From: Candidatus Kerfeldbacteria bacterium
GTDB lineage: Bacteria > Patescibacteriota > Patescibacteriia > UBA9570 > XYC2-FULL-38-9
Direction: 5' to 3'
Assembly: GCA_043813585.1 (NCBI GenBank)
Contig: JBDRKW010000020.1
Coordinates: 129,185 to 193,184, forward strand
Length of the DNA: 64,000 nucleotides
Made by a program: the position numbers and the translations under genes. The notes under the pieces were generated by a model that was not told where the DNA came from, did no database searches, and saw nothing but the letters and a program-made list of their open reading frames with translations. Every line of letters begins with the position of its first letter. Positions within the stretch are counted from its first letter, which is position 1. Positions 31,731 through 61,782 of the stretch are shown piece by piece.

Positions 31731-31740
31731 GCTCCTCCTC

Positions 31741-32466
31741 TTATTCTTTCTTAGCGTCTTTCTCGCCTTCTCCTTCTTTCTTCTCTTCCCCTGCTTCAGT
31801 TTCTTCCGTCTCACCTTCCTCATCGGTTTCTTTCTTTCCTTCAACTTCAACATCAGAGATATCTTCAACAACATCTTCTTCAAGCGCTTTCAATTCCTCC
31901 TCGCTTCTCGGCTCAGCAACGGAAACAACGGTTGAGTCCGGCGCCTGCAGGTATTCAACTCCCTCCAATACAGGAAGATCGCGAACGCGGATATCATCAT
32001 CAAATGTCGCAAGAGACGTAAGGTCAACGACAATATGATGCGGCAAATCTTTCGGCAAACACTTCACCTCTAGCTCTGAAATCGTTTTTACGATGATGCC
32101 ACCGAGTTCCTTTTCAGCCGGCGCAATGCCTTCAAATAGTATCTCAACTTCAGCAGTCAGTTCCTCATCCATATTGACGATATAAAAATCAATATGCCTA
32201 TACGAATGCTCAACAGGATGTCGTTGAAGATCATGAACCAAGACCTTCACAGAATCCGAATCATCTATAACTAAATCAATAAGCGTACTTTCCCCTGCCT
32301 GGTCCAGTACCCTTTCAAAATCCAACGCATTAACGGATAACGGCGTTGTCACTTTATCTTTGCCGTAGACAATTGCCGGGATCATTCCGCCTTCCCTCAC
32401 TTTTCCCGCTCCAGCTCGTCCCTTATCTTCCCGCGTAACTGCTTTTAGTGTAATTGCTTCGCTCAT
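31741..32466 (-). CDS. rplY: Ribosomal protein L25/general stress protein Ctc with acidic E/K-rich C-terminal tail
   Basis: MSEAITLKAVTREDKGRAGAGKVREGGMIPAIVYGKDK... L25 profile, C-terminal beta-barrel domain, and a tail of about 50 aa rich in E, K and G. Confidence 0.8.
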   Translation of the reverse strand: MSEAITLKAVTREDKGRAGAGKVREGGMIPAIVYGKDKVTTPLSVNALDFERVLDQAGESTLIDLVIDDSDSVKVLVHDLQRHPVEHSYRHIDFYIVNMDEELTAEVEILFEGIAPAEKELGGIIVKTISELEVKCLPKDLPHHIVVDLTSLATFDDDIRVRDLPVLEGVEYLQAPDSTVVSVAEPRSEEELKALEEDVVEDISDVEVEGKKETDEEGETEETEAGEEKKEGEGEKDAKKE

Positions 32467-44303: not shown

Positions 44304-45062
44304 CTATTCTTCTTCCGAATACTCTTCCCATGCAGCATGCCGGTACTGTTCTGCCGCTTTCACCGGATCATCTGCCTTATATATGCCCCGACCGACGATA
44401 ATCACGTCAGTACCTGACTGCATCGCTTCTCGTGGCGTTTGATATTGCTGGCCGAGCGCATCTCCTGTCGCTTCAAGATTGACGCCAGGCGTAAACACGA
44501 GCATTCCCTTGGGAACATCTGCACTTCCCTTGCCCACGAACCCGATAACGAATTCATCATGCGCGGCAGCCCATTTATAAGCTGTCTTTGTATACTTCCC
44601 TGTTGCTAGCGAGCCTTTTGAACTCATTTCCGCTAGCAACAGCAATCCCCGGCCTTTCGGCAGCCCTACCTCCTTTAATCCCTCGATAACCCCCTCTCCA
44701 GGGATAATATGTGCGTTGGTTATGTCAGCCCAGTCCGAAATATGGTAGATACCCTTCTCATACTGCAATTTAACCGTATTGCCGATGTCGGCAAATTTCC
44801 GGTCCTCAAAAATCAGAAAGTTGTGTTCATGGGCCAGTTTTAACAGATCACTAACCACATCATCGCTGAAATCTTCCATCGTATCGATGTGCGTCTTAAG
44901 AACGCATATTTGCGGACCCAGCGCATCTGCCAGAGCCAAAAACTCCTTAGACCTTGTTACATCCAGTGATAAGCACAAGTTGCTCCGTTTTGAATGGATG
45001 ACCTGTACCAATTTCTTCGCTACCGGATTTTTTACTTCTCCCAGTTTTGAGATTATTCCCAT
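44304..45062 (-). CDS. pyrF: Orotidine-5-prime-phosphate decarboxylase, eukaryote (URA3)-like type
   Basis: NLCLSLDV, KTHID, EDRKFADIGNTVKLQY, DWADITNAH, GSLATGKYTK, DFVIGFVG, GDALGQQY and IIVGRG blocks. Confidence 0.85.
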   Translation of the reverse strand: MGIISKLGEVKNPVAKKLVQVIHSKRSNLCLSLDVTRSKEFLALADALGPQICVLKTHIDTMEDFSDDVVSDLLKLAHEHNFLIFEDRKFADIGNTVKLQYEKGIYHISDWADITNAHIIPGEGVIEGLKEVGLPKGRGLLLLAEMSSKGSLATGKYTKTAYKWAAAHDEFVIGFVGKGSADVPKGMLVFTPGVNLEATGDALGQQYQTPREAMQSGTDVIIVGRGIYKADDPVKAAEQYRHAAWEEYSEEE

Positions 45063-45081
45063 GTATGTTTATTGAATTTTA

Positions 45082-46041
45082 TCAACGCATATTTATCGCG
45101 GAACGTGGCTCTTTATTGCTCTCCGGGCACATTTCTTGGAATCGCTCGATCTCTAATGTGATCATCCCTGCAATTTCCTTGGACAGCTCAGATATTTCAA
45201 GGGCGGCAATCATATCTTCCTTTGTCAACCCCATCTGCTCAACAATATAGCCAAAATCATATCGGTCATAATAAGAATTCATGGAAGCTGCGGCCCATTC
45301 GCCGGATGTTGCGACGGGAAATGTTTCATTTATTTCCTTGATGTAAGCTGCATATGCAGCTGACGCGAGCAATTCACTTTCATTAGCTTTTTTAATATAC
45401 CGGTCAGTTGTACGCCGAATTTCATCCATCTGCCGGACTAAAGTATGGTCGATAATCCAACCCATGACAGACGAAATAAGATATGGATAATCATTCTCCT
45501 TAAGCGCAACATCAAAGCGCTCATAGGCATCGCAAGAATCCATGCCTGTTGCCTCTACGCACTGGACCATCTCATCTGAATGGTTGGGATGCTGCACATG
45601 TGCAGCTTCATGCATAAGATCATCCGGCGCTAACGCGTCAATATCTCCGACTAAAATATGATCATCCTCAACTGTCTTCGTACCGAATGTTACGAGTCTT
45701 GCTGCTGCGTTTTCTTCATCCCCAAAATCAAATACATAGACATTATCATGTTGAATAATTATTTCGAGGTCAGCTAGCGTCTGTTGCAAGTCAGCTATAA
45801 GTTCGTCATTATTGTCAATTGGCTCTCCCCTCCCGCTAAACAGCGGCTGCGCGCGCTTCATTAATTCTACAAAAGGAACGAATTCTATCTTCGCTATGCG
45901 AAGTATTTCTAGAATGCGTTCTTTGTTCGCCTGATCTAAGGGGGCACAACCGCTTAAGGTTGGCATTGCACCCGCAGCAGTAGCGCCCAGGCACTGCAAC
46001 AACCTCCGCCGCGTCATCCCTTCTTGCGGCAGATTACTCAT
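45082..46041 (-). CDS. Hypothetical Tat-signal lipoprotein-like protein with HExxH motif
   Basis: RRRLLQCLGATAAGAMPTLSGC (twin-arginine plus lipobox-like Cys) and HEAAH. Start chosen at MSNLPQ to avoid overlapping pyrE. Confidence 0.45.
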   Translation of the reverse strand: MSNLPQEGMTRRRLLQCLGATAAGAMPTLSGCAPLDQANKERILEILRIAKIEFVPFVELMKRAQPLFSGRGEPIDNNDELIADLQQTLADLEIIIQHDNVYVFDFGDEENAAARLVTFGTKTVEDDHILVGDIDALAPDDLMHEAAHVQHPNHSDEMVQCVEATGMDSCDAYERFDVALKENDYPYLISSVMGWIIDHTLVRQMDEIRRTTDRYIKKANESELLASAAYAAYIKEINETFPVATSGEWAAASMNSYYDRYDFGYIVEQMGLTKEDMIAALEISELSKEIAGMITLEIERFQEMCPESNKEPRSAINMR

Positions 46042-46675
46042 ATCCCATCGCGCTTCCCCATGCTTGCGGATCTTTATTCCACGCAAGGATCTTTTCTTGT
46101 TCGTCCTTCTTGATATAGCCGTTTGCCGAAGCGACATCCACGAGCGTCGAAAAATTCGTCAATGTATGCAGCTGTATATCCGCTTCGGAAAAAGCAGCTC
46201 GCGCCTTTTGCATCTCATAGGTAAAGATAGCGATACAATCGATTACTACGCCGCCTTCTTCGCGCACTGCAAGGCCGGCATCAACCGAACTGCCTCCCGT
46301 GCTGATAAGATCTTCCACAATGAGCACGGTCTGGCCTTTCTTTATAACGCCTTCGATGCGGTTTTTCTTTCCGTGGCCTTTTTCCTTCCCGCGGATATAG
46401 ATCATGGGTTTCTTCAAACGATCTGCGATCCATGCCGCATGCGGTATGCCGGCAGTTGCCGTTCCTCCCACAACATCAAATTCCAAATTCTGCTCACGTA
46501 TCAAATCAAGAAATGCCTGTATAACAACTTCGCGCTTGTCGGGGTAAGAGATGACGAGCCGGTTATCACAATAGATCGGGCTGAGAATGCCTGACGTATA
46601 CCGAAACGGTTCCTCCGTGTTTAATGCCACTGCCTTGATGTCCAGCAGTAATTTTGCGATTTCTTCTGAAGCCAT
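46034..46675 (-). CDS. pyrE: Orotate phosphoribosyltransferase
   Basis: PRPP-binding loop VLIVEDLISTGGSS; FDVVGGTATAGIPHAAW. Confidence 0.85.
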   Translation of the reverse strand: MASEEIAKLLLDIKAVALNTEEPFRYTSGILSPIYCDNRLVISYPDKREVVIQAFLDLIREQNLEFDVVGGTATAGIPHAAWIADRLKKPMIYIRGKEKGHGKKNRIEGVIKKGQTVLIVEDLISTGGSSVDAGLAVREEGGVVIDCIAIFTYEMQKARAAFSEADIQLHTLTNFSTLVDVASANGYIKKDEQEKILAWNKDPQAWGSAMGYE

Positions 46676-46677
46676 AA

Positions 46678-47505
46678 CTAAAATTCGTGTTTAATGCCTT
46701 GCTTATCCCTATGATACTTGCCGAACTCAATAATGCGTAGCGCTTTTGCTCCGGAGATCACAGGCCCTTTCTGGCACGTCGGGAAACCGTCGTCGTCCAC
46801 GCAGCAATTTCCGCAAATCCCGAATCCGCATTTCATGTAGCGCTCAAGCGAAATTTGCGTAGCGACCCCGTAAGTTTTGCCAAGCTCAGCGACTTTCTTC
46901 TGCATCAATTCAGGGCCGCATGCGCATACGACCACATCCTTCCGTTTCCGGTCGCTCATGTCATTAAGTATTTTATCGAGAATATCCGTTGCGAAACCTT
47001 TCACGCCCCGCGAACCGTCATCTGTTGCCGCATGCACTTTTGCGCCCGCTTTTTTCGCGCGCTTTTCGAAAAGCAGATGTTCCCTGCTTCGCGCGCCCAC
47101 GATAAAATCAATCTTGCATTTTTCTTCGGCAGCACGATCTGCTAAAAACGCGAGTGGCGCCGCGCCATATCCTCCGCCAACCGTTATAACATGCTGTTTC
47201 GGTTTCCATGCATAATCCGTGCCGTACGGACCGCTGATTCCAACTTTATCCCCTTTCTTCAGCTTGAACAGCGTCTGGGTCGCTTTACCAAGTTCAAATA
47301 TTGAAAGCTGGAATGAATCCCCCTCGTCTCCGCCGATGGAAAACGGTTTTTGATCGACGCCAGGAATCCACAGCATCACAAACTGCCCCGGCTTGGACTT
47401 TAGCTCATAATCAAAATAGAACGTACGCACTTTTGCCGTCTCCTGGACGATCTCCGCAATAGGAACCATCACCGGCGTATCGGCTCTGTCAGGATTACTC
47501 TTCAT
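46678..47505 (-). CDS. pyrK: Dihydroorotate dehydrogenase electron-transfer subunit
   Basis: FAD/NAD-binding ferredoxin-reductase fold plus a C-terminal [2Fe-2S] Cys cluster (CGFGICGNCC...C). Confidence 0.85.
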   Translation of the reverse strand: MKSNPDRADTPVMVPIAEIVQETAKVRTFYFDYELKSKPGQFVMLWIPGVDQKPFSIGGDEGDSFQLSIFELGKATQTLFKLKKGDKVGISGPYGTDYAWKPKQHVITVGGGYGAAPLAFLADRAAEEKCKIDFIVGARSREHLLFEKRAKKAGAKVHAATDDGSRGVKGFATDILDKILNDMSDRKRKDVVVCACGPELMQKKVAELGKTYGVATQISLERYMKCGFGICGNCCVDDDGFPTCQKGPVISGAKALRIIEFGKYHRDKQGIKHEF

Positions 47506-48421
47506 GCGCCATGCCGATTAGTTCTTTAACTTCTGAAATTCCTTCTTTCCCCATCCGTTCCTGCATCTCTTTTGCGATCAGAGACATCGTCTTCTCGCCC
47601 CGGTAATAAAATGCCGTTCCGACTCCTACCAACGTTGCGCCAGACATCATCATCTGGATAGCATCGTCGCCGGTCGTCACACCACCAGTCCCGATAATCG
47701 GGATAGATACTGCTTCATATATATCCCACACTGCTTTCAGCGCTATAGGTTTCAGTGCCGGACCGGATAATCCTCCGCTCTTATTTGCAAGAACAGGGCG
47801 CCGCGCTTCAATGCTGATCTCCATTCCCAAAGCCGTGTTCACAGCCGTAATCGCATCCGCGCCGGCAGCCTCCGCAATTTTTGCAAGCTCGCCTATCTGC
47901 CATGTATTTGGCGATAGTTTTACGGAAACGGGTACATTTGAATTCTTCTTTACCAGCTTGGTAATTTTCTCTATTGATTCCGGGTCATGCGAAAACGGAC
48001 GGTCATACAGATGGCTTGCGTGCGGACATGAAATATCGATCTCCAGTAAATCTATCGGCGCCTCACGAATCTGTCTGGCTGCCTCGCCAAACTCCTCCCA
48101 TGTCCGCCCATAGATTGATCCGATGAGGACACCGGAGCATAATTCTTGAAATTTACTCAGCTCAGGAAGAGACGCCTCGATTCCCGGCCCCGGCAACCCG
48201 ACGGCGTTTAAGAAATATTCATCCTGGCCCAGCATAGTCGGATTAGGATTTCCTTCTATTGCCTCAACAGTGACCGATTTCATCGTTACACCGCCTGCGC
48301 CATTTTTAACGACGCGCGCCAGTGATGCGCCCGTTACGCCCAGAATACCCGACGCTAAAACAAGCGGATTTTCAAATTTCGAGCCTAGCGCTTCTATTCC
48401 TAACGAGGTTTGTTTATTCAT
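47495..48421 (-). CDS. pyrD: Dihydroorotate dehydrogenase (class 1B) catalytic subunit
   Basis: NPLVLASGILG, the catalytic Cys region CPHAS and TIM-barrel DHOD motifs. Confidence 0.85.
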   Translation of the reverse strand: MNKQTSLGIEALGSKFENPLVLASGILGVTGASLARVVKNGAGGVTMKSVTVEAIEGNPNPTMLGQDEYFLNAVGLPGPGIEASLPELSKFQELCSGVLIGSIYGRTWEEFGEAARQIREAPIDLLEIDISCPHASHLYDRPFSHDPESIEKITKLVKKNSNVPVSVKLSPNTWQIGELAKIAEAAGADAITAVNTALGMEISIEARRPVLANKSGGLSGPALKPIALKAVWDIYEAVSIPIIGTGGVTTGDDAIQMMMSGATLVGVGTAFYYRGEKTMSLIAKEMQERMGKEGISEVKELIGMAHEE

Positions 48422-48473
48422 GCTGTTTTGCCCAATATGGGCTTAGTATACCAGACTTTGCCCCTATAATCGA

Positions 48474-49418
48474 TTAATCGTTTCGGTGACGGTCCAACCA
48501 TACAAGCAAACCGTTTTGCCCGTGCATCCTATTTTCCGCCTGGTCCAATATAACGGCATTGCTGTGATCCATTGCATCCCTTGAGATTTCATAACCGATG
48601 TGGCACGGCATGCAGTGCATAATTTTTGCCTGAGGAGCATAGGTATCGATTGTTTCTGCATTCAGCTGGAACGGCTTGAACATTTCCATTCGCATATTAT
48701 ACTCTTCTTTGAACTCTTCCTTCACCTGTCCGTTCTCGAAAAATTCCATATCCACCCACGTATCGGTATGCACAAAGTCCGCGCCGGTCAATCCTTCCTT
48801 CAGATTTGTCGTGTAGGTCACCAAGCCGGTATCGTTTGCCATTTTATTCAACTCTTCATCAACGCTGATCTCGTGCACTTTGGGTGCAATAATGGCAATT
48901 TCAATCCCGAGCTTTGTTGCCGCAAGCTTCAACGTGTTCGAAACATTATTCTCAATGCCTAACCACGCAATCTTCTTAATATTTTCCAATCCGCCAGCTT
49001 TCTCAATCATGGTAAGAAAATCACTCAGTGCCTGGCACGGATGGTATTTTTCACTGCACCCGTCTATGACGGGAATCCTGTTAAACGATGCTGCCACTTC
49101 CACATCCTCCGCGCGCATCGCGCGCATCATCAGAATATCGCCAAACCGCATCACAGCCTGGATCTCATCCTTATAATCAGTCAGTGAAAATTGCGACGTT
49201 TTTTGGTCAAGGAATATCCCATGCCCACCGAGCCTGGTCATACCCGCCTCAAATGATAACCTCGTTCGCGTGGACCCTTTCTGAAACAGTATGATAGTTG
49301 TCTTCTGCTTCAATGCGTCCTGGTACGTTTCAGGGTTCGCCTTGATATCCGACGCAAGTTCAAGAATCTCCTTAAGTTCATCGGCAGAAACGTCTTTGAG
49401 ATGGATAAAATGTCTCAT
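48474..49418 (-). CDS. Ornithine-carbamoyltransferase-family transcarbamylase with non-canonical substrate loop
   Basis: STRTR, HPCQ and HCMP (OTCase-type rather than the ATCase HPLP) and IENNVSNTL (OTCase DxNNVxNS-like). The ornithine-binding SMG loop reads HTDTWVDMEF. Confidence 0.7.
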   Translation of the reverse strand: MRHFIHLKDVSADELKEILELASDIKANPETYQDALKQKTTIILFQKGSTRTRLSFEAGMTRLGGHGIFLDQKTSQFSLTDYKDEIQAVMRFGDILMMRAMRAEDVEVAASFNRIPVIDGCSEKYHPCQALSDFLTMIEKAGGLENIKKIAWLGIENNVSNTLKLAATKLGIEIAIIAPKVHEISVDEELNKMANDTGLVTYTTNLKEGLTGADFVHTDTWVDMEFFENGQVKEEFKEEYNMRMEMFKPFQLNAETIDTYAPQAKIMHCMPCHIGYEISRDAMDHSNAVILDQAENRMHGQNGLLVWLDRHRND

Positions 49419-49427
49419 ATGCGTATA

Positions 49428-50612
49428 TTAAACTGCTTTGTTATCAATTATTGTAAATAACGGCCAGCCCTGGAGCTCCATCCCCTCGTACGGCGTCCAT
49501 CCGCATTTTGTTTTCAGCCGCTCTTTTGACACGGTCTGCTTCTTCGCCATATCAACGACTGTTCCGCACTGACCTAACGACGGCAGGTTGAATATGGCTA
49601 TCGGCTTGGTATGCATTGCATCGATTAATCGGTCTAAACCGATTTTCCCCTCGTTCACCGCATTCAGCATTAAAGATAAAACAGTATCAATCTCCGGTAT
49701 GCCTGCAGGCGCTGTTTCGTAACCACTCTCCTTCTCCGCCGGTAAATGCGGCGCATGGTCAGTGCTGATCACATCGATTGTTCCGTCCCGTAATCCCGCC
49801 CATAGCGCTTCATTATCCTCTGCAGTTCGCAGCGGCGGATTCACCTTCACATAATCACCCCACTGTTCATAGTGTAATTCATTCAGGAACAAATGATGTG
49901 GCGTCACTTCCGCAAATACGGGCAGTCCGTCATTTTTTGCTTCACGTATCAGATCAACCTCTTCTTTTGTAGAGATATGCGCAATAACTGTCGGCTTATT
50001 AAACTCGCGCACCAATTCAAGCACCATCTTTACAGCGCTTACTGCAACAGCGCGATCTCGAACGCGAGAATGCTTATCACTACCGGAATAATCCGCAAGC
50101 TTCTCGGCATTTTCACTGATCATCACGTCATCTTCAGCATGAACAACAATGACCTTATCCCATTGTTCGTATATTCTGCGTAGCTCATTCTCAGAATCAA
50201 CAAGCAGATCACCGGTTGAAGAACCGACATATATTTTCAGCCCGACCACATCATCGGCAATTCCATTATCCGGTACCACAGTGCCGGATGCGCCTAAATT
50301 GAAAAACGCATGCAAGCCATACTTCTTTTGGCTATGTACTAGAGACTTTTTTTGCTTATAGGTGGCAGCATCAACCATGGCCGGCGTATTATTCGGCATG
50401 TCGATGACCGCGCATATTCCTCCAAACACAGCGGCCTCCGACCCTGTGACCCAGTCTTCTTTCTGCTCTGCACCGGGCACTCGAAAATGAACATGACAAT
50501 CAACAAGGGCTGGCAATAAAACCAACCTCCGCGCTGTTACCTTTTGCTTCACATCCTCCCAATCGCCGTCATCCAGCCATTGCTGCAATTCTTCCTTTGA
50601 TAATTCGGCCAT
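49428..50612 (-). CDS. pyrC: Dihydroorotase
   Basis: DCHVHFRVPG metal-binding motif, amidohydrolase fold, 394 aa. Confidence 0.8.
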   Translation of the reverse strand: MAELSKEELQQWLDDGDWEDVKQKVTARRLVLLPALVDCHVHFRVPGAEQKEDWVTGSEAAVFGGICAVIDMPNNTPAMVDAATYKQKKSLVHSQKKYGLHAFFNLGASGTVVPDNGIADDVVGLKIYVGSSTGDLLVDSENELRRIYEQWDKVIVVHAEDDVMISENAEKLADYSGSDKHSRVRDRAVAVSAVKMVLELVREFNKPTVIAHISTKEEVDLIREAKNDGLPVFAEVTPHHLFLNELHYEQWGDYVKVNPPLRTAEDNEALWAGLRDGTIDVISTDHAPHLPAEKESGYETAPAGIPEIDTVLSLMLNAVNEGKIGLDRLIDAMHTKPIAIFNLPSLGQCGTVVDMAKKQTVSKERLKTKCGWTPYEGMELQGWPLFTIIDNKAV

Positions 50613-51058
50613 TACTTGATCTCGTCAGGACTAAACAGCTTTTCGCAATAATGGCACTTCACCTGCATCTCATTATTTTTAAACAAGGGGTAAAATTTAG
50701 GCTGTTCTGGATCCATATTCGTTATGCATTTCGGATTCGGGCACTTGCCGATATTCTCAAACACTTCCGGCAATTCAGCCGTATATTTCTTTACGATCTT
50801 GAAATCGCGAATGATATTGATCGTGGCTTCCGGCGCAATGAGAGCAACTTGGTTGACGTCCTCCGGTGTTAACTCTTTATCCTCGATCTTAATCAGATCT
50901 TTCTTCGCCCGCTTCTTTGATTTGAAATTCGCGCCCATGGTTACAAAATTGCCGCTCTCAATCAGCTTTAACATACGTATCAGACGTATTGCCTGGCCGG
51001 CCGGGATATGATCAATAACCGTTCCGTTCTTGATTGTAAATACTTTAAATGCTCGCAT
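50612..51058 (-). CDS. pyrI: Aspartate carbamoyltransferase regulatory subunit
   Basis: MRAFKVFTIKNGTVIDHIPAGQAIRLIRML, C-terminal zinc domain CPNPKC...CHYC. Confidence 0.85.
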   Translation of the reverse strand: MRAFKVFTIKNGTVIDHIPAGQAIRLIRMLKLIESGNFVTMGANFKSKKRAKKDLIKIEDKELTPEDVNQVALIAPEATINIIRDFKIVKKYTAELPEVFENIGKCPNPKCITNMDPEQPKFYPLFKNNEMQVKCHYCEKLFSPDEIK

Positions 51059-51063
51059 AGTGG

Positions 51064-51981
51064 TTATTTTACTTTGCCTAATACTAATGAAAGAACCGCC
51101 TGACGGGCAAAGAGACCGTTCTCAGCCTGTTGAAAATAGTATGCGTATTTCGTATTATCGACAGCCGGATCAATTTCATTGACGCGCGGCAGCGGATGCA
51201 TCACTTTCATATTCGGCTTTACTTTCTCCAGCATGTCCGTTGATAAAACATAAACATTTTTTACGCGTTCATATTCTAACGGATCCGGGAATCGTTCTTT
51301 CTGAATGCGCGTCATATAGATGATATCAACCTTATTGATGACGCTTTCAATTTTGTCATGAAGGCTAAATTTAATGTTGCGCTCCTTCAGATACTGCTGG
51401 ATATGCATTGGCATCTGGAGTGCATCCGGTGCAACAAAATAGAGCCGCGCATCGTAATGCGCCAGCGCCTGCGCCAGCGAATGCGTCGTGCGTCCGAATT
51501 TCAAATCGCCTACCAACGCGATTGAGAGGCCTGTCAGTTTTTTCTGCGACTCTTTAATGCTAAATAAATCCAACAGCGTTTGCGTCGGATGCTGATTTGC
51601 CCCATCTCCGCCGTTAATAACCGGTTTGTCGGTCGCTTCCGCAGCCAGCCGTGCCGAACCTTCAGCCGGGTGCCGCATGGCAATCACGTCTGCATACAAC
51701 CCAATATTCTTGATAGAATCATGCAGTGATTCACCTTTTGCAGTTGATGAAACGCCTGCTTCGGCAAAACCGATAATGCTCATACCTAACCGTTCCGCAG
51801 CCGTTTCAAACGACAAACGCGTTCGTGTCGACGGTTCGTAGAACAGGCTTGCCATCACATAGTCCTTTAAGAGTGACGGCTTTGGAGCCTTTTTCATTTT
51901 TTCCGCTACCTGCAGGATATGGTTAATTTCCTGTTTCGTCAGGTCCGTAATGGAAATGATGTCTCTTCCCTTGAAATTCAT
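51064..51981 (-). CDS. pyrB: Aspartate carbamoyltransferase catalytic subunit
   Basis: STRTR, HPTQ-region, VGDLKFGRTTHSL and HPLPR motifs. Confidence 0.9.
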   Translation of the reverse strand: MNFKGRDIISITDLTKQEINHILQVAEKMKKAPKPSLLKDYVMASLFYEPSTRTRLSFETAAERLGMSIIGFAEAGVSSTAKGESLHDSIKNIGLYADVIAMRHPAEGSARLAAEATDKPVINGGDGANQHPTQTLLDLFSIKESQKKLTGLSIALVGDLKFGRTTHSLAQALAHYDARLYFVAPDALQMPMHIQQYLKERNIKFSLHDKIESVINKVDIIYMTRIQKERFPDPLEYERVKNVYVLSTDMLEKVKPNMKVMHPLPRVNEIDPAVDNTKYAYYFQQAENGLFARQAVLSLVLGKVK

Positions 51982-52054
51982 ACTATTACAATGTGTTAAT
52001 AATCGAATGGTCCGCGTCTATTGTACAATTTCTAACGCTGATGCACAACATATT

Positions 52055-55000
52055 CTAAGAAGATTTCTCATACTCGTTCCAGGATTTGGGCTCCAGTGCA
52101 ATTTCGCCCTTTTTTAGGCGATAAAATGCCTGAATAAACGTCTTTGCCAACTGCGCGTTTGAGATCATTGCGACGTTATGGTCAATAGCCATTCTCCGAA
52201 TCTGATAACCGTCAGTAACCGTCTTTCGGTTGTAATGGCGCGGAATATTAATAATAAAGTCAATCTGCCCCTGTTCCAGATATTGAAGTACATTCGGCTG
52301 CTTTTTTTGCGATACCTTATACAACGACTTCACCGGAATCCGCTCTTTTTCTCTCAAATATGCGGCCGTATGCTCGGTGGCTAAAATATTAAAACCGAGT
52401 TCATGCAGCTGTCGAATATATTTTGACAAGCGCGCTTTCTGCTCTTCCGGCCCGATTGCAACTAAAATATTCTTTTTCGGCAACCGGAGGTCTGCCGCCA
52501 TGAGCGCCTTTAAAACGGCTTCATGGTATGAATCACCAAAACACGCGACCTCTCCGGTGGAACCCATTTCGACATAGAGAACCGGATCCGCGCCCTTGAT
52601 GCGCGAATATGAGAACTGGGGCGCCTTCACCGCCACATAATCCAAATCAAGCGTGTTGTATTCGCCGCGAATATCTTCACCGAGCATGGACTTGGTTGCC
52701 ATCTCGATAAAATTGTACTTTGTCGCTTTGGATACGAACGGAAAGCTGCGCGATGCCCGCAAGTTCAGCTCAATAACACGCAGCGTGTTTCCCTTGGCTA
52801 GAAACTGAATATTGAACGGCCCGGTGATCTGGAGCTCCTGTAGAATATTTTTCGTTATGCGCTTGATCTTACGAATCGTTTCCAAATAGGTTTTCTGCGG
52901 AGGCGTGACGACCGTTGCATCGCCTGAATGCACTCCCGCGTTTTCAATATGTTCCGTGAATGCGTAAATGACCAGCTCGCCGTTCTGCGCAACTCCATCA
53001 ATTTCCACTTCCCGGGCATCCTTGATGAACTTTGAAATAACTACGGGATGATCCTTTGATACCAGCGATGCTTCTTCCAGGTACTGCGTTAGCCCTTCTT
53101 CATTAAACGCTATATTCATTGCGGCGCCGGAGAGCACATACGACGGCCGTATCAGTACGGGATATTCTGCCTTTTTCGCAAATGCAACGGCCTGGCTCAT
53201 TGTCGTCAGCTCGCGCCATTCAGGCTGCTCAACGCCCAAATCATCAAGCAGCGATGAAAATTTATTCCGGTCTTCCGCCTGGTCAATATGCTCTGCTGAC
53301 GTGCCAAGTATCTTTACTCCGGCTTCATGCAGCGGAATCGCAAGATTATTCGGCGTCTGGCCTCCCATGGAAACGATAACGCCGTGAGGCGATTCAAAAT
53401 CATGGATATCCATCACGCGCTCCCATGACAATTCCTCAAAATATAACCGGTCGCACGTGTCATAGTCCGTTGACACTGTTTCAGGGTTGCAGTTGATCAT
53501 CACGGTCTGAAAGCCCTTGATCGACGCGGTCTTCACCGCCTCAACACAGCACCAGTCAAACTCCACTGACGAACCGATGCGGTAGGGGCCGCTCCCGAGC
53601 ACGGCAACTGATTTTCTTCCTTTCCGAATGTCGTTCTCAGACCCGTTGTACGTCATGTACAGGTAATTTGTCTGCGAAGGGAACTCACCGGCAAGCGTAT
53701 CGATCTGCTTCACGACGGGCATGACGCCCATTTTCTTTCTGCGCGCCCGGATCGCCCGTTCTGTCGACCCGCGAAGATCCGCAATCTGCTTGTCGGAAAA
53801 ACCGAATTGCTTTGCTTCGCGCATAATGGAAGGGGTGAGCTTTTTTGCTCGTTTGATGTTTTTCTCAAAACGCACAATACGAAACAACTTCTCTAAAAAC
53901 CATCTGTCGATCTTTGTCTCCCTATGTAGCTCCTCTGCAGTTTTCCCGGACCGCATTGCCATGCAGAGTGCGAACAACCGACGGTCTGTCGGGTGCATAA
54001 TTTCATCCTGAACATCATCAATCACAATATCCCCGCCAACAACGCCATCCGCGCCAATACTTAACATGCGGGCTGCTTTTTGGATCGCTTCTTCAAATGT
54101 CCGGCCGATTGCCATGACCTCGCCGACGCTCTTCATCTCTGACCCGATGCGGCGGCTGGCCGCCTTGAACTTTGTTAAATCCCAGCGTGGAATTTTGATC
54201 GCGACATAATCCAACGCCGGCTCAAAACAGGCCTGCGTCTTGCCTGTAATAGTATTCTGAACATCTAGCATGCTATATCCTAACGAAAGTTTCGCTGCCA
54301 CCCAGGCCAGCGGATAGCCGGTTGCCTTTGATGCCAGCGCGGATGAACGCGACAGCCGCGCATTCACCTCAATAACGCGGTACTCGCCGTTTTTTGGGTT
54401 AAGCGCATATTGAATGTTGCATTCCCCCACTATCCCCAAATGCCGAACGGTCTTTAACGCGATTGTACGCAGCCCGTGGTACTCCTCGTTCGTCAATGTT
54501 TGGGATGGCGCAATGACGATGCTCTCACCCGTATGGATCCCCATCGGATCAAAATTTTCCATGTTGCAGACGGTCACGCAATTGTCATACTCGTCACGCA
54601 CCACTTCATATTCAATTTCTTTCCAGCCGCCCAAATATTCTTCCAATAACACCTGCTGCACTGATGAAAAGACTTCCTTCAGCCGCCGTTCGAGCTCCGC
54701 TTCATTTCGTATCATGCCGGAACCCAGACCGCCCAACGAATAGGCGGAACGTATCATTAATGGGTATCCAAGCTCTCTGCCGGCTTCTTTTGCTTCGCCG
54801 ATAGTTCGAACTGCGAAACTCCTTGCCGTATCCACGTTTATTGTCGAAAGCTGCTTCGCAAAGAGATCGCGATCTTCGGTGTTTTCAATCGCATATGTCG
54901 GCGTTCCCAGCACGCGGACGCCAAATCGCTGTAAAATACCGCGCTTATCAAGTTCCAGGCCGACATTCAACGCGGTCTGGCCGCCAAAGCTCAATAAAAT

Positions 55001-55261
55001 TCCGTCAGGCCGTTCCTTCTCAATAACCTGCCTGACCTCATCCGAACGAACGGGAAGAAAGTACGTCTCATCCGCCATATCTTTATCCGTCTGGACGGTG
55101 GCGATATTCGGGTTGATGAGAACCGTTGCAATTCCCTCTTCTTTCATCGCTTTAATCGCCTGCGATCCGGAGTAATCAAATTCACCGGCCTGGCCGATGC
55201 GCAAACCTCCTGAACCCAGGATCAATACTTTTTTCGGTTTTGAAACAGAAGAGGATGTCAT
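52055..55261 (-). CDS. carB: Carbamoyl-phosphate synthase large subunit
   Basis: 1068 aa, duplicated ATP-grasp halves plus a C-terminal MGS-like domain. Confidence 0.9.
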   Translation of the reverse strand: MTSSSVSKPKKVLILGSGGLRIGQAGEFDYSGSQAIKAMKEEGIATVLINPNIATVQTDKDMADETYFLPVRSDEVRQVIEKERPDGILLSFGGQTALNVGLELDKRGILQRFGVRVLGTPTYAIENTEDRDLFAKQLSTINVDTARSFAVRTIGEAKEAGRELGYPLMIRSAYSLGGLGSGMIRNEAELERRLKEVFSSVQQVLLEEYLGGWKEIEYEVVRDEYDNCVTVCNMENFDPMGIHTGESIVIAPSQTLTNEEYHGLRTIALKTVRHLGIVGECNIQYALNPKNGEYRVIEVNARLSRSSALASKATGYPLAWVAAKLSLGYSMLDVQNTITGKTQACFEPALDYVAIKIPRWDLTKFKAASRRIGSEMKSVGEVMAIGRTFEEAIQKAARMLSIGADGVVGGDIVIDDVQDEIMHPTDRRLFALCMAMRSGKTAEELHRETKIDRWFLEKLFRIVRFEKNIKRAKKLTPSIMREAKQFGFSDKQIADLRGSTERAIRARRKKMGVMPVVKQIDTLAGEFPSQTNYLYMTYNGSENDIRKGRKSVAVLGSGPYRIGSSVEFDWCCVEAVKTASIKGFQTVMINCNPETVSTDYDTCDRLYFEELSWERVMDIHDFESPHGVIVSMGGQTPNNLAIPLHEAGVKILGTSAEHIDQAEDRNKFSSLLDDLGVEQPEWRELTTMSQAVAFAKKAEYPVLIRPSYVLSGAAMNIAFNEEGLTQYLEEASLVSKDHPVVISKFIKDAREVEIDGVAQNGELVIYAFTEHIENAGVHSGDATVVTPPQKTYLETIRKIKRITKNILQELQITGPFNIQFLAKGNTLRVIELNLRASRSFPFVSKATKYNFIEMATKSMLGEDIRGEYNTLDLDYVAVKAPQFSYSRIKGADPVLYVEMGSTGEVACFGDSYHEAVLKALMAADLRLPKKNILVAIGPEEQKARLSKYIRQLHELGFNILATEHTAAYLREKERIPVKSLYKVSQKKQPNVLQYLEQGQIDFIINIPRHYNRKTVTDGYQIRRMAIDHNVAMISNAQLAKTFIQAFYRLKKGEIALEPKSWNEYEKSS

Positions 55262-56328
55262 TGTTTCTTGACCAGTGAGATAAAATCATCAAACAGGTAC
55301 TCCGTATCTTCCGGGCCCGGGTTTGCCTCGGGATGAAACTGCACGGAAAAATGCGGTTTGCTCGCATGGCGAATTCCTTCAACTGTGCCGTCATTTGCAT
55401 TGGTGAACCATACATGCCACCACTTTGGCATGGTTGACTCGCGGACGGCAAAACCATGGTTCTGCGTAGTGAGGTAGCAGCGTCCGCTCATTCGGTCAAC
55501 GCATGGCTGGTTTTGCGACCGATGCCCGTATTTTAGCTTGTACGTCTTCGCTCCTGCTGCCAATCCGAGAATCTGCGAACCAAGGCATATCCCAAATATT
55601 GGCTTGGGCGAGTGTAATACTGTTTTCAGATGCGCTATCGTTGCATCAGCCATCTGCGGGTCTCCCGGTCCGTTTGAAATAAATAATCCATCCCAATCTT
55701 CATTGGTGAAATCATAATCCCATGGAACGCGCTTCACAGTTACGCCGCGTTCTGTCAATTTTCGTAAAATGCTCAATTTCATGCCACAATCAACAGCAAT
55801 CACTTTCTTTTTACCGCTACCGTACGTTATTGAACGGGCAGGGCTCACTTCTGCGACTAAATTTCGCTCATTCGGATCAGCAATGTACTTTTTTCCGCGC
55901 GAAGAACCAACCACAATCTGCCCGAGCATGACACCGTGTTCCCGTAGTTTCTTTGTCACTGCCCTCGTATCAATACCGTAAATCGCAGGAACGGAAGATT
56001 CATCCAGCCATTCATGCAGTGACTTTATCGCACCTGCATGTGAATAATCATCTGAATAATACTGGACGATCAAACCCTGGATTTTAACGCCGTCTGATTC
56101 AAACGGGCCCTTAGAAACGCCGTAGTTCCCCACAATTGGATAGGTCATCACTAGAATCTGGTCCTTGAACGACGGGTCGGTAAATGCTTCCGGATACCCG
56201 ACCATGCCGGTCCCGAAGACGATCTCTCCCTGTGTATTGGTCGCCGATCCGAAAGAATATCCCTCAAATCGCGTCCCGTCCTCAAGTACGAGCGCCGCGC
56301 GTATTCTGTTATTCACACCATTCGTCAT
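55258..56328 (-). CDS. carA: Carbamoyl-phosphate synthase small (glutamine amidotransferase) subunit
   Basis: CPSase small-chain N-domain plus a class I GATase domain (GICLGHQ-like ICLGSQ, HPE). Confidence 0.9.
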   Translation of the reverse strand: MTNGVNNRIRAALVLEDGTRFEGYSFGSATNTQGEIVFGTGMVGYPEAFTDPSFKDQILVMTYPIVGNYGVSKGPFESDGVKIQGLIVQYYSDDYSHAGAIKSLHEWLDESSVPAIYGIDTRAVTKKLREHGVMLGQIVVGSSRGKKYIADPNERNLVAEVSPARSITYGSGKKKVIAVDCGMKLSILRKLTERGVTVKRVPWDYDFTNEDWDGLFISNGPGDPQMADATIAHLKTVLHSPKPIFGICLGSQILGLAAGAKTYKLKYGHRSQNQPCVDRMSGRCYLTTQNHGFAVRESTMPKWWHVWFTNANDGTVEGIRHASKPHFSVQFHPEANPGPEDTEYLFDDFISLVKKQ

Positions 56329-58141: not shown

Positions 58142-58564
58142 TTATAAACCGGTACTTCCAAAACCGCCTTCGCCGCGATCTGTCGCATCCAGCGCGTCAA
58201 CGAGTTCAACGGACGGCGAAACGACGGGTTGAATAAGAATTTGGGCAATCTTCTGATGCTTTTCAATGACAACCGGCTCCTGTCCCAGGTTATTGAGGAC
58301 AATCTTCACTTCCCCCCTATACCCCTCATCAATAACTCCTGCCATGGTCTTTAATCCTTCTTTCACGGCGCGTCCGCTTTTATCCCACACCAATGCCACA
58401 TGGCCGGTAGGAATCTGCATGGCAATACCTGTCGGGACTGCGTGACGCTGACCGGGCTGTAAGGTGACTTCTTCGAGTGCGAAAATATCCATGCCCGCAT
58501 CGCCTTGGTGAGCATATTCAGGAATCTTGGCGTTTTCATGCAGCTTCTGAACCTTTACCGTCAT
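58142..58564 (-). CDS. dut: dUTP diphosphatase
   Basis: Five dUTPase motifs (GDAGMDI, GLKTMAGVIDEGYRGE, GGFGSTG). Confidence 0.85.
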   Translation of the reverse strand: MTVKVQKLHENAKIPEYAHQGDAGMDIFALEEVTLQPGQRHAVPTGIAMQIPTGHVALVWDKSGRAVKEGLKTMAGVIDEGYRGEVKIVLNNLGQEPVVIEKHQKIAQILIQPVVSPSVELVDALDATDRGEGGFGSTGL

Positions 58565-59190
58565 TTCTTTATTTGATTCATGATTAAATCAATGATCTTT
58601 TCTTCATTTTCCTCTTTTGGTCCGTCGGTCGACAATATTTCCCAATTGTCGTTTTCCTCAGCCAGCTTCAGAAAATACACGCGAACCTTTTTATGGAATT
58701 CCAACTCTTCTTTATCCATCCGGTTCAGCTCTTCCGGGCCCTCTTCTTTGCGCTGAATGCCGGTTTCCGGATCAATATCAAGATACAACACCATATCAGG
58801 ATCTAGTCCATTGCGCGCATACGCATCCATTTCTTGGATCAGCTCGGTTTCTCTCAGTTCGCGTCCGCCGAGCTGGTAGGCAAATGTCGAACCTGAAAAC
58901 CGATCGCACAACACAACTTTCCCTTCTTCCAATGCAGGCCTGATGACCTCTTCAACATGCTGCGCCCGATCTGCCAGGAATAAAAACAGCTCCGTTCTTG
59001 GGAATACGGAGTGTTTATTTTCATAAAGAATTGCCTTACGGATTACTTTTCCCACTTCTGAACCGCCTGGTTCGTGCGTTTCCAATACGTCATAACCTTC
59101 ATTTCGAAGATACTCTGCAAGCGCCGAAGCATGGCGGGTTTTCCCGCTTCCCTCTCCCCCTTCAAACACGATAAACGTTCCTTTTTTCAT
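58561..59190 (-). CDS. tmk: Thymidylate kinase
   Basis: P-loop FIVFEGGEGSGKT, DR(F/Y) motif, 209 aa. Confidence 0.85.
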   Translation of the reverse strand: MKKGTFIVFEGGEGSGKTRHASALAEYLRNEGYDVLETHEPGGSEVGKVIRKAILYENKHSVFPRTELFLFLADRAQHVEEVIRPALEEGKVVLCDRFSGSTFAYQLGGRELRETELIQEMDAYARNGLDPDMVLYLDIDPETGIQRKEEGPEELNRMDKEELEFHKKVRVYFLKLAEENDNWEILSTDGPKEENEEKIIDLIMNQIKK

Positions 59191-60653
59191 TATTGCGGTA
59201 GCTTGCAGTCAATGTCGCCGTACGGTAACGGTCGGTCTTGAGTATACTGAATTCCCAACCTGTTTGCAATTTCTGCCTTCTGCAGTTCTGCGCCCAAATC
59301 AAAAGCATGGATGGGTACGGAAACGCCCATTTCTGAAGCAATCTGCTCGAATAGTCCTATAGCTGTTTTTCCCGAATAGGTCGAAATTTTCCTGCCTTCA
59401 GGCGTCAGGTGGGTTACCTCAATGGTTTTTTCCGGTGTCGTCTTTATAACGTAATTGCCCCGGGGATCCTGTTCGCACGGCAACGCCGGATAATGCTTGC
59501 CGAGTATATCCTGAACCTGCACGTAACTCTCCTGGTAAATGTGCGCAGAGCCGGAAATCGTCGTAAGCGGCCCCATTTCAAGGCCGATCGCATCTGCTAT
59601 CTCTTTTTGCAATGTACGGAATGCAAGCGTATTCTCCGGCCACGCGCGAAACATATCATTAGAACGAAGGTACGCCGTTACATGCAGTTTGTCATATTTT
59701 ACAACCGCCTGCACCAGGTTGAGGCAAGGCGGATGCTCCGACTCGTCATCAGTATCAACATTCCATAACACGCCAACCGCCCTGCGCGACCACGGCTCTT
59801 TTTTCAACTTCTCGATAATGGATGCAATCTGATCTTTCCCACCAAAATCGCGCATCCTCATGCCGTAAGTATAGCTCAGAGTCGGCTCCATTTTTGCCGT
59901 CATCACCTGGGGCAAATAGTTCTCAAAATGCTCTTTTGTAAACGGAAAATAATCCACAAAATTGATGTTGTCCGGACACTCATCAGTAATAACGGCCGCA
60001 ACATTCAATAATTCCCTCTGCGTGCCGCTCGTATAATGAGAAGTTTTCTCTTCGCCAAACCGCATAATTCCATACAGCAGCTTCAACCAGACATCCGCAA
60101 CTTTCTCGCCGCGGTAGGTATACACCGAACCCTCTGACGGATACCATTCCGATTCAATTTTCGGTTCCGGATACAGCGTCGCCTCGGCCCACGGTTCTGC
60201 CGGCCGGCCGGCCTCGTCAATGGCTTTTTGCACTATGTCCGCCTTTAATTCCCCACGCATATCCACAACGTCCACATTCCTACGAAATAATTCTACAGCT
60301 TCACGCGGAATCTCTTTCTCCACCTGCGATTCTTCTTTTCCAATTACCTCATTTTTTTCGTTGATACCATTTTCAATAAGTTTCGATAATGTATCTGCAG
60401 AACCGATTTTATCCTGGCCGCAAAGCACAATAGTCCGAAGAGTAGGGTTTGCAAGAACATTCCGCAGCAATGGATTGATACCATCGTTGGAATACAGCTG
60501 CCCCATAACCTGATACGATTCATCGCGCAATTTGGACGCAAACGCCTCTTTTGGCGTCCATAATGTAGCAACGCCAACACTCGATGAGCGGTTGCCCACA
60601 ATCAGGTTATCTGCGTAATAAATTGGCCATTCATTCAGTGGCATATCACACAA
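59190..60653 (-). CDS. Thymidylate-synthase-family (ThyA/dNMP hydroxymethylase fold) protein with about 170-aa N-terminal and about 95-aa C-terminal extra domains
   Basis: Central region aligns to ThyA (VWLKLLYGIMRFGEEK, SRRAVGVLWN, PPC catalytic Cys, LRSND, PENT with Asn at the E. coli N177 position, SAHIY). H of PCH is Leu. Flanking domains are unrecognised. Confidence 0.6.
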   Translation of the reverse strand: MCDMPLNEWPIYYADNLIVGNRSSSVGVATLWTPKEAFASKLRDESYQVMGQLYSNDGINPLLRNVLANPTLRTIVLCGQDKIGSADTLSKLIENGINEKNEVIGKEESQVEKEIPREAVELFRRNVDVVDMRGELKADIVQKAIDEAGRPAEPWAEATLYPEPKIESEWYPSEGSVYTYRGEKVADVWLKLLYGIMRFGEEKTSHYTSGTQRELLNVAAVITDECPDNINFVDYFPFTKEHFENYLPQVMTAKMEPTLSYTYGMRMRDFGGKDQIASIIEKLKKEPWSRRAVGVLWNVDTDDESEHPPCLNLVQAVVKYDKLHVTAYLRSNDMFRAWPENTLAFRTLQKEIADAIGLEMGPLTTISGSAHIYQESYVQVQDILGKHYPALPCEQDPRGNYVIKTTPEKTIEVTHLTPEGRKISTYSGKTAIGLFEQIASEMGVSVPIHAFDLGAELQKAEIANRLGIQYTQDRPLPYGDIDCKLPQ

Positions 60654-60706
60654 AGGGTACTAAAAAAGGCGCTTTTTTACAAGCTCCGCGGGCTGCACAC
60701 ATTCTG

Positions 60707-61252
60707 CTACGAATTCAGCTTTGTTATCATCTGATGCACCTCATCTTCCAGGTCTTTGATGGTACCGGTATTTTCAATCACAAATGCCGCCTGGCCGCGA
60801 AATGACGACACCTCTGTCTCTGTCGGAGCCTCTTCTTCTTTTGTGAACTCTTCGAATGACAGTTCCGTTTCGCCGACCTTCTCCCCGCGCGTTGTTGCGC
60901 GTCCGTACCGCATCTTCAACGGCGCATCAATGAATACCAGCGTAAACCCGGGAATATCCTTAAATAAGTCGATCTCACTACGCATGCGGATGCCGTCGAT
61001 AACCGCTATTTCATCCTGCGCTGACAACACATCCTTTTTCAATACTTGCGCCAAAATATCATTGCCGAGTGTTTTACGAAGTCCCGTAGCCACAGCAATG
61101 AGGTGCTCTCGCGATTTTTCCAAATGCAGCCGCGTACAAATATCTGCTAAAATATCCGACATTGTATATGCTTTTGCGCCCAACTCTGCCTGCAAAATGG
61201 CTGATGTCGTCCCCTTTCCTCCAAGTTTTGGGCCTGTCAATCCAATAACCAT
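60707..61252 (-). CDS. P-loop deoxynucleoside-monophosphate kinase-like protein (phage T4 gp1-like)
   Basis: P-loop GLTGPKLGGKGT, recalled as resembling T4 dNMP kinase SGVKRSGKDT; VIDGIR resembles IVPDTR. 181 aa. Confidence 0.45.
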   Translation of the reverse strand: MVIGLTGPKLGGKGTTSAILQAELGAKAYTMSDILADICTRLHLEKSREHLIAVATGLRKTLGNDILAQVLKKDVLSAQDEIAVIDGIRMRSEIDLFKDIPGFTLVFIDAPLKMRYGRATTRGEKVGETELSFEEFTKEEEAPTETEVSSFRGQAAFVIENTGTIKDLEDEVHQMITKLNS

Positions 61253-61782
61253 TATGCCGTATTTAATTGCACTGCATCTCCATCCCTTTCATCAATATCT
61301 TTTGTAAACATCTCGGAAACATGGCCATTCCACCCCTCGCTCGGTTCATAATGGTCATACTGGACACCGGCATCCTTCAAATATTCGATGACTGTTTTAT
61401 TCCGGTAATTCTTTCCAACGACGATTCTCTCCACCCCGGCAGCCACAACATATTTCGCACAATGAATGCAGGGACTGTACAGCGCATACAGTGTTGTACC
61501 TTTTGTTGAAGTTCCTCCGACGACAGCTGCCTGAAGAAGCGCATTATGCTCTGCATGAATCGTACGGACGCAATGTCCGTCTTCCAACAGGTGCCCTATG
61601 TCATCACAATGTTCGAGAGCCGGCGGGGCGCCGTTATACCCGGTAGACACAATCCGCTTATCTTTTACAAGAACTGCACCTGCAAAAAGGCGGTCGCACG
61701 TCGCGCGTGTAGCCACAATCCTGGCAATTGACATGAAATAATCATCCCAGGACGGCCGAATAGTTTGTGATGTCTTACTCAT
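61252..61782 (-). CDS. dCMP deaminase (ComEB-type cytidine/deoxycytidylate deaminase)
   Basis: HAEHNAL and SPCIHCAK zinc-binding motifs. Confidence 0.8.
   Translation of the reverse strand: MSKTSQTIRPSWDDYFMSIARIVATRATCDRLFAGAVLVKDKRIVSTGYNGAPPALEHCDDIGHLLEDGHCVRTIHAEHNALLQAAVVGGTSTKGTTLYALYSPCIHCAKYVVAAGVERIVVGKNYRNKTVIEYLKDAGVQYDHYEPSEGWNGHVSEMFTKDIDERDGDAVQLNTA

Follow-up and report, generated by a model that had tools for sequence, protein, structure and literature searches.

A three-domain thymidylate synthase-family protein with MtrA-like and DUF4346 flanks in CPR bacteria and DPANN archaea

Results

One gene encodes three domains

We analysed a window of 64,000 nucleotides from a Candidatus Kerfeldbacteria bacterium (assembly GCA_043813585.1, contig JBDRKW010000020.1, positions 129,185 to 193,184) and focused on a minus-strand gene at 59190..60644. 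It encodes a three-domain protein of the thymidylate synthase (TS) family, 484 amino acids long, which we call the fusion. The stop codon occupies 59190-59192. The open reading frame (ORF) given for this gene in the ORF list, 59190..60653, would yield 487 residues if a TTG at 60653, three codons upstream of an ATG, were used. We place the translation start most likely at the ATG at 60644, because a sequence-identical public protein (P0001), named 'thymidylate synthase [Candidatus Kerfeldbacteria bacterium]', is annotated with 484 residues. All residue numbers here refer to this 484-residue protein; those of an original prediction, made from the DNA letters alone, are higher by three.

That prediction described a ThyA-family core flanked by two extra domains, with sizes of about 170, 220 and 95 residues. 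Pfam found all three domains above their gathering cut-offs, and a full-length AlphaFold2 model (38 homologues as input; pLDDT, the per-residue confidence, 89; pTM, the global confidence, 0.64) divided the protein in agreement with these sizes: an alpha/beta N-domain (1-160), a disordered linker (165-172), the TS core (175-388) and a C-domain (392-473, with its strands and helices at 397-463). On the gene, the N-terminal MtrA-like Rossmann-type domain (residues 1-160) lies at 60165..60644, as supported by Pfam, NF002126 and the structure 5laa. It is followed by an inter-domain linker (residues 161-174; 60123..60164) that is predicted to be disordered, with a pLDDT below 50 at residues 165-172 and a variable alignment. 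The short, methanogen-type TS core (residues 175-388) spans 59481..60122 according to Pfam, TIGR03283, Foldseek and hhalign, and the C-terminal PterinBD-DUF4346 domain (residues 389-484) spans 59193..59480. The view that the flanks hold no recognisable motifs had to be revised, since profile hidden Markov models name both of them, as MtrA (E 1.7e-13) and PterinBD-DUF4346 (E 8.5e-14).

A protein search returned 965 relatives, and we read the domain architecture in the 120 that were listed. A pattern scan with one genome per GTDB species found that at least 588 species genomes encode a relative of the fusion, and we examined the best 80 loci. The three-domain architecture was present in 120 of the 120 listed homologues and in all 80 loci, each time uninterrupted in one ORF, and the loci come from independent assemblies. 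We had considered that an assembly or frameshift error might have fused three separate genes. That idea fails because the architecture recurs in the best 80 loci of the at least 588 matching genomes, and AlphaFold2 gives confident domains in the full-length protein; nothing spoke for such an artefact, whose probability is practically negligible, and the architecture is not a product of chance either.

The core resembles a short thymidylate synthase with intact catalytic residues

Residues 257-392 matched Pfam Thymidylat_synt (PF00303; E 1e-24, 87.5 bits against a cut-off of 24.3), and residues 181-377 aligned to positions 4-198 of the 201 positions of NCBIfam TIGR03283 (E 7.5e-45; 152.9 bits, below the equivalog cut-off of 174.55). 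Because the latter alignment runs nearly from end to end, the core reads as a complete short TS of the methanogen type. Foldseek matched many ThyA structures at E 1e-15 with identities of 22-25%, a PDB sequence search likewise gave TS matches, and hhalign against Escherichia coli ThyA gave a probability of 99%. This E. coli sequence, identical to that of PDB 1aob, was our reference for residue mapping.

The signatures named in the original prediction (PPC, R-S-x-D, an Asn and H-x-Y) are present as HPPCLN, R327-S328-N-D330, N338 and H368-I-Y370, and the codon of Cys307 in HPPCLN lies at 59724-59726. The core shares the ThyA fold, and in the hhalign alignment C307 corresponds to Cys146 of E. coli ThyA, R287 to Arg126, R327, S328 and D330 to Arg166, Ser167 and Asp169, N338 to Asn177, H368 and Y370 to His207 and Tyr209, and Y260 to Tyr94. 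We then counted conservation in an alignment of 106 distinct fusion proteins. P306-C307, R327, S328, D330, N338, Y370, Y260, Q272 and E211 were invariant (106/106), H368 was kept in 105 and R287 in 95. On the nucleotide side, the catalytic residues are intact in this set.

The folate side is different. The core stops after the H-x-Y helix and so lacks the last ~45 residues of canonical ThyA, including the C-terminal carboxylate that closes over folate. The equivalents of the folate-contact residues L172 and F176 (positions 333 and 337) vary among the 106 relatives, and the helix-B region does not have canonical length. The canonical folate-binding set (the C-terminal tail together with L172, F176, W80 and W83) is not found in the core. 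Standalone short TS proteins of 202-241 residues likewise terminate right past their SAHIY helix. In a neighbour-joining tree the fusion cores were monophyletic and clustered with archaeal short TS of 200-240 residues, with canonical ThyA outside; their mean identity was 32% to short TS and 23% to canonical ThyA. The likeness to methanogen-type short TS (TIGR03283, ~200-240 residues) therefore extends to end-to-end alignment, end point, catalytic residues and tree grouping. However, those enzymes are single-domain proteins of methanogens, whereas the fusion is a 484-residue protein with its core between two further domains and is hosted by bacteria of the Candidate Phyla Radiation (CPR) and by archaea of the DPANN group.

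A global hhalign alignment had suggested that the first DUF4346 strands might be the missing ThyA C-terminus. We dropped this idea because comparing the profiles locally put its probability at 0.3%. Separately, a Woesearchaeota contig (L013:3377-3985, minus strand) carries a standalone 202-residue short TS ending in SAHIYL, four genes from an intact fusion, so the short TS core and the fusion coexist there.

The N-terminal domain is an MtrA relative without the corrinoid ligands

The N-domain matched Pfam MtrA (PF04208) over residues 5-148 with 51 bits against a cut-off of 25, and NF002126 with an E of 4e-24. Its score against TIGR01111 was 50.7-53.9 bits, below the equivalog cut-off of 249. 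The solved MtrA structures 5laa (E 1.3e-13) and 5l8x matched it over ~145 residues. MtrA is the corrinoid-binding subunit of methyl-tetrahydromethanopterin:coenzyme M methyltransferase. Its His84, hydrogen-bonded to Glu54, ligates the corrinoid cobalt, and a GAIPF-Y/F-x-EN meander is conserved (PMC4915002). The fusion has a Rossmann-type domain and conserved loops in common with MtrA and its cytoplasmic homologues, but it is without His84, Glu54, the meander motif and the membrane anchor, and its hosts offer no methanogenesis context.

In the 5laa alignment, His84 falls on Ser82, beside a two-residue deletion, and Glu54 on Ser52. Position 82 is S, T, A, C, G or V and position 52 is S, D, Y, F, T or N in the 106 sequences; His and Glu never occur at either, and across this set no His or Cys of the domain is conserved. 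The meander segment reads ES-QVEKEIP, with IEKEIP as the family consensus. Because the two ligand-site positions never hold His or Glu, a corrinoid role of the domain appears unlikely. At the same time, its most conserved stretches are the loops that form the binding site of MtrA, and some tail-pocket positions are kept, with G55 and N62 as the counterparts of Gly57 and Asn64. This pattern suggests that a ligand site persists in the domain, which would no longer be a His-on corrinoid site.

The N-domain had been noted as the size of a dihydrofolate reductase (DHFR) without visible DHFR signatures, and indeed the DHFR_1 family gave no match (E <= 0.1), whereas true DHFRs of related loci reach 1e-45. 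Neither flank matched an NAD(P)- or flavin-binding Pfam family at E <= 0.1, and no dinucleotide-binding motif was identified in the flanks. We also observed a protein of 5841 residues (P0224) in which 19 repeated stretches match N-domain residues 87-133 (E 2.3e-26 overall), which may be a repeat or low-complexity effect.

The flanking domains occur together without the core

The C-domain matched PterinBD-DUF4346 (PF14251) over residues 395-473, with 52.5 bits against a cut-off of 29.6 and all 86 model positions aligned. Its AlphaFold2 topology is three strands followed by two helices, the motifs DPRGN and H-x-x-D-x-G-x-E-L-x-K-A-E ... Q-D are conserved, and the domain modelled alone reached a pLDDT of 86.8. 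We found no PDB relative of it either by sequence or by fold (best E 0.2), and no literature on pterin binding by PterinBD-DUF4346.

Two protein families share flanking domains with the fusion but have no TS domain. TIGR00284, an archaeal family resembling dihydropteroate synthase (DHPS), ends in the same domain (positions 423-497 of 497). NF002128 (390 positions) contains an MtrA-like domain (112-263) followed directly by DUF4346 (289-370). The fusion flanks score far below the cut-offs of both families, which are themselves uncharacterised in function. Because the two domains are adjacent in NF002128, and because one protein (P0196, see below) consists of these two domains alone, the MtrA-like and DUF4346 domains form a pre-existing module, with the TS core inserted in its linker.

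The fusion is widespread in CPR and DPANN genomes

All of the best 80 loci cover residues ~5-473, and their hosts are only CPR bacteria or DPANN archaea. The former include Kerfeld-, Wolfe-, Parcu-, Nealson-, Buchanan-, Uhr- and Peribacteria, Paceibacterota and others; the latter include Woese-, Nano-, Aenigmat-, Pace- and Micrarchaeota and Nanobdellota. When the N-domain was used as a query against 1.84 billion representative proteins, 676 clusters were found (E <= 1e-3), most of them fusions, and nearly all of the top 150 were 460-530 residues long. Fusion proteins are already public, annotated as 'thymidylate synthase' or 'hypothetical protein', and precomputed Pfam matches show which domains they combine. 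Full-text literature searches gave no paper in which the fusion is described or explained, and its flanks are not known ThyA accessory domains.

Some relatives depart from the common architecture. Two rare forms are longer: P0087 (708 residues) adds a Tmk domain to the fusion, and P0266 (733 residues) adds a dCMP deaminase domain. In four others (P0244, P0252, P0281 and P0337; 393-400 residues) the core is cut to ~150 residues and the Cys, RSxD and HxY signatures are gone, and in P0238 the TS core has its full length with mutated catalytic residues. P0252 (L092:8001-9188) is a paralogue that shares a Woesearchaeota genome with an intact fusion (L023), and P0337 (L093:8001-9182) has a kinase-dCMP deaminase gene and tmk at a distance of two to three genes. 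The TS core is absent from P0196 (273 residues; L089:872-1693), which has only the MtrA-like and DUF4346 domains with ~15 residues between them; its gene lies immediately upstream of tmk, and its sequence, a single cluster, occurs in three metagenome samples. P0349 had seemed to be a form with TS and DUF4346 only. It was discarded as no real variant, because a contig end removes its start.

Neighbouring genes point to dUMP and dTMP

In the window, the fusion gene belongs to a minus-strand string of five genes with overlapping ends, in the order dCMP deaminase, kinase, TS fusion, tmk and dUTPase, and the same gene order was found in another Kerfeldbacteria genome. The thymidylate kinase gene tmk (58561..59190; Thymidylate_kin E 3.6e-48) overlaps the TS stop by one base of its start (TAATG). 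The adjoining dUTPase (58142..58564; E 1.5e-34) and the dCMP deaminase at the other end (61252..61782; dCMP_cyt_deam_1 E 8.5e-24) both supply dUMP. Between the deaminase and the fusion lies a gene for a P-loop, nucleotide-kinase-like protein (60707..61252) of the AAA_17 family (E 1.6e-07) that is PRK08356-like (NF006226, E 3.8e-17). The 62-base gap from its stop to the TS start contains an A/T-rich inverted repeat, AAAAAAG-CGC-CTTTTTT, at ~60662-60678 (minus strand), and no clear Shine-Dalgarno sequence was seen when the sequence upstream of the TS ATG was inspected.

To count neighbours, ORFs were called and clustered in the best 80 loci plus the window (81 in total), with ~8-10 kb readable around each genome match, and cluster representatives were checked by Pfam. 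Tmk was near the fusion in 31 of the 81 loci, immediately downstream on the same strand in 20. Other neighbours were dCMP deaminase (21/81), dUTPase (16/81) and the P-loop kinase (10/81), and a kinase-dCMP deaminase fusion (4/81). Dcd-type deaminases were found 15 times, as a dCTP deaminase-like protein of 184 residues in 9 loci and a large DCD of 375 residues in 6. These neighbours, together with the proteins in which the fusion is joined to Tmk or dCMP deaminase, point to a reaction from dUMP to dTMP.

At several loci of DPANN archaea, relatives of the upstream kinase are themselves joined to dCMP deaminase (c26 proteins, for example L018:4084-5121), which suggests that the P-loop kinase may be a (deoxy)nucleotide kinase feeding the deaminase.

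Fmt and Def are also encoded in the window, indicating that the organism uses formyl-tetrahydrofolate, and folA, glyA and folD are common in CPR genomes (PMC11974145). On these grounds the one-carbon carrier is most likely a folate.

Discussion

We favour, with a probability of roughly 55%, the view that the fusion is an active short archaeal-type TS that methylates dUMP and whose MtrA-like/DUF4346 module supplies or services the cofactor-side elements that the core is missing. The core would convert dUMP to dTMP for the thymidylate kinase encoded next to it. It is fully equipped for the nucleotide side of this reaction, with the Cys nucleophile, the phosphate-binding Arg residues, the uracil-reading Asn and the His/Tyr pair, but has neither the C-terminal segment nor the hydrophobic residues with which canonical ThyA clamps folate. 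The module could then handle a ligand, binding or presenting the pterin or folate that carries the one-carbon unit, or service the cofactor side in another way, and it would not be a corrinoid carrier. The original prediction had offered three roles for the extra domains: bringing in another one-carbon donor, bringing in a reductant, or linking the enzyme to a partner.

Several observations weigh against this view. The five variants with a dead TS core and the TS-less P0196 have intact N- and C-domain motifs and keep the tmk/dCMP deaminase context. Since both flanks and context survive there, the module would seem to do more than complete a TS active site, and these proteins suggest that it serves thymidylate metabolism in its own right; the variants are rare and could also be decaying copies. 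Five DPANN loci (L018, L033, L040, L044 and L075) have a canonical ThyA of 276-359 residues one or two genes from the fusion, and it would be odd for a single gene string to encode the same function twice. R21 of ThyA is not conserved: its equivalent falls on position 203, occupied by Q, H, K or S, in a manual alignment of a region where hhalign and the predicted secondary structure disagree. No MtrA/DUF4346 neighbour was found beside standalone short TS genes in four loci (Methanocorpusculum, Methanoculleus and two others). The pTM of the full-length model is only 0.64. Finally, the biochemistry of archaeal short TS is scarce, and their cofactor use is barely characterised (PMC9931769). A partnership in trans between standalone short TS and MtrA/DUF4346 genes, which we had considered, was not seen in the four loci examined.

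The loci with canonical ThyA also bear on folate. DHFR was found in four of these five and never in the 76 loci without ThyA. In L018 and L044 it is joined to serine hydroxymethyltransferase (SHMT). The L018 order is ThyA, DHFR-SHMT, fusion and Tmk, with the DHFR-SHMT gene overlapping the start of the fusion, an arrangement that connects the fusion with the folate-dependent thymidylate cycle. In those genomes the co-location of ThyA and DHFR argues against a fusion that is merely redundant with ThyA or merely replaces DHFR.

The DHFR-SHMT proteins (L018:6179-7996 and L044:5290-7011, in two Woesearchaeota loci) are single polypeptides of 573-605 residues with DHFR (PF00186) and SHMT (PF00464) domains. 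They combine two of the three enzymes of the thymidylate cycle, and we found no description of such a fusion.

The module might instead act as an enzyme. Specifically, it could be a non-canonical reductase with a bound redox cofactor, which regenerates tetrahydrofolate from the dihydrofolate released by TS, or gives the hydride directly, so that FolA is not needed. The protein would then be an analogue of the bifunctional DHFR-TS of protists, which also joins an N-terminal domain of ~160-170 residues to TS in one polypeptide, and a DHFR-TS chain was in fact the top Foldseek match, although through its TS part only. The fusion differs from DHFR-TS in that its N-domain is not a DHFR (no PF00186 match), its TS is of the short type and it has a third, C-terminal domain. 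The restriction of DHFR to loci with canonical ThyA fits a reductase, as does the MtrA fold, which is Rossmann-type and structurally nearest to nucleotide/CoA-binding domains (PMC4915002). DUF4346 also terminates the DHPS-like pterin enzymes of TIGR00284, and an enzymatic role of its own would explain why the module persists near tmk where the TS core is dead or deleted. However, the flanks show neither NAD(P)- or flavin-binding families nor a dinucleotide-binding motif, the module would be redundant in L018 and L044, where a canonical DHFR-SHMT stands in the gene string of the fusion, and folA is common in CPR bacteria (PMC11974145). We therefore regard a reductase of this kind as unlikely. 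In a broader form of the idea, the module would process cofactors in a way not recognised before, perhaps as a non-canonical reductase of dihydrofolate or pterin or as a tightly bound pterin carrier, and would make the fusion a self-contained, FolA-independent thymidylate-cycle enzyme for CPR and DPANN hosts. Its independent activity would likewise account for survival of the module without a working core; we consider this broader reading doubtful.

Alternatively, the module could be non-catalytic, either a regulator or sensor of ligands (such as dTTP/dCTP or the folate status) or an oligomerisation scaffold that tunes TS and the neighbouring thymidylate enzymes. The retention of flank motifs and of tmk/dCMP deaminase adjacency in P0244, P0252, P0281, P0337, P0238 and P0196 speaks for such a unit, and so does the presence of an intact fusion and a TS-dead paralogue in one Woesearchaeota genome. 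But these proteins are rare, with P0196 forming a single cluster, and may be decaying copies; moreover, the other associations of the module are with pterin chemistry (the DHPS-like TIGR00284 and the MtrA family) rather than regulators, and no allosteric-domain family matched, which leaves this explanation unlikely too. It is quite improbable that the core makes a different C5 modification, hydroxymethylation or hydroxylation, as phage TS homologues do, with the extra domains bringing a different cofactor. The best target-normalised Foldseek match was indeed a 217-residue phage dCMP hydroxylase, AfhB (9iqu, target-normalised TM-score 0.79), a riboflavin-dependent dCMP monooxygenase (9iqc) was matched as well, the canonical folate-contact positions are absent or variable, and the canonical ThyA at five loci argues against simple redundancy. 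Nevertheless, dCMP-acting TS homologues carry Asp, not Asn, at the base-discriminating position, and dCMP is an unlikely substrate because the uracil-discriminating Asn338 is invariant. In addition, the identity to ThyA (22-25%) exceeds that to 9iqu and 9iqc (17-19%), Tmk is immediately downstream in 20 loci and fused in P0087, most loci have no other TS nearby, and the family occurs in at least 588 cellular species, not in phages. Corrinoid chemistry, in which the MtrA-like domain would bind a cobamide as MtrA does and relay a methyl group to the TS core, has in its favour the significant homology to MtrA, the retained tail-pocket residues G55 and N62 and the habit of MtrA-type domains of partnering pterin-binding methyltransferases (PMC4915002). 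We rejected it as highly improbable, since His84, Glu54 and the GAIPF/Y-x-EN meander are all replaced, the domain has no conserved His or Cys, and TS chemistry requires a methylene group and a hydride rather than a methyl cation.

Ultra-small symbiotic bacteria and archaea retain few biosynthetic capacities, among them the essential one for thymidylate, and in many lineages of CPR and DPANN the fusion may be the principal enzyme of the ThyA type. What the module does bears on how a short archaeal TS holds its one-carbon carrier, on the role of DUF4346 in other contexts, including the DHPS-like archaeal proteins, and on whether CPR and DPANN hosts depend on FolA. If the module is only a structural add-on, the fusion would be a well-documented but ordinary architectural variant.

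Other features of the window

The genes for dUMP and dTMP are part of a larger group. Just beyond gatB, a complete de novo pyrimidine cluster runs from 44304 to 56328 on the minus strand, with carA, carB, pyrB, pyrI, pyrD, pyrK and pyrF as well as an amidohydrolase (pyrC-like) and a phosphoribosyltransferase (PRTase; pyrE-like). Pyrimidine and dUMP/dTMP genes together form one cluster of ~18 kb that reaches up to 61782. CPR bacteria are usually described as being without complete nucleotide biosynthesis (for example, PMC11974145).

Within the pyrimidine cluster there are two genes of the aspartate/ornithine carbamoyltransferase family (48474-49418 and 51064-51981, both minus strand), and pyrI follows the second only; the first may encode another PyrB or else an ornithine carbamoyltransferase. 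An ORF of 351 residues without a Pfam match (45082-46137, minus strand) separates pyrF from the PRTase gene. At its 5' end it shares ~100 bases with the PRTase ORF (46034-46675), which probably means that one of the two starts was called wrongly. Elsewhere in the window, a tandem pair of DUF3048 paralogues occupies 29433-30596 and 30600-31883 (minus strand), followed by a 387-residue ORF without a Pfam match (28283-29446). A 392-residue ORF on the plus strand (39155-40333), with dnaE on one side and a gene for a class II tRNA synthetase on the other, gave only a weak Baseplate_J-like match (E 5.5e-05).

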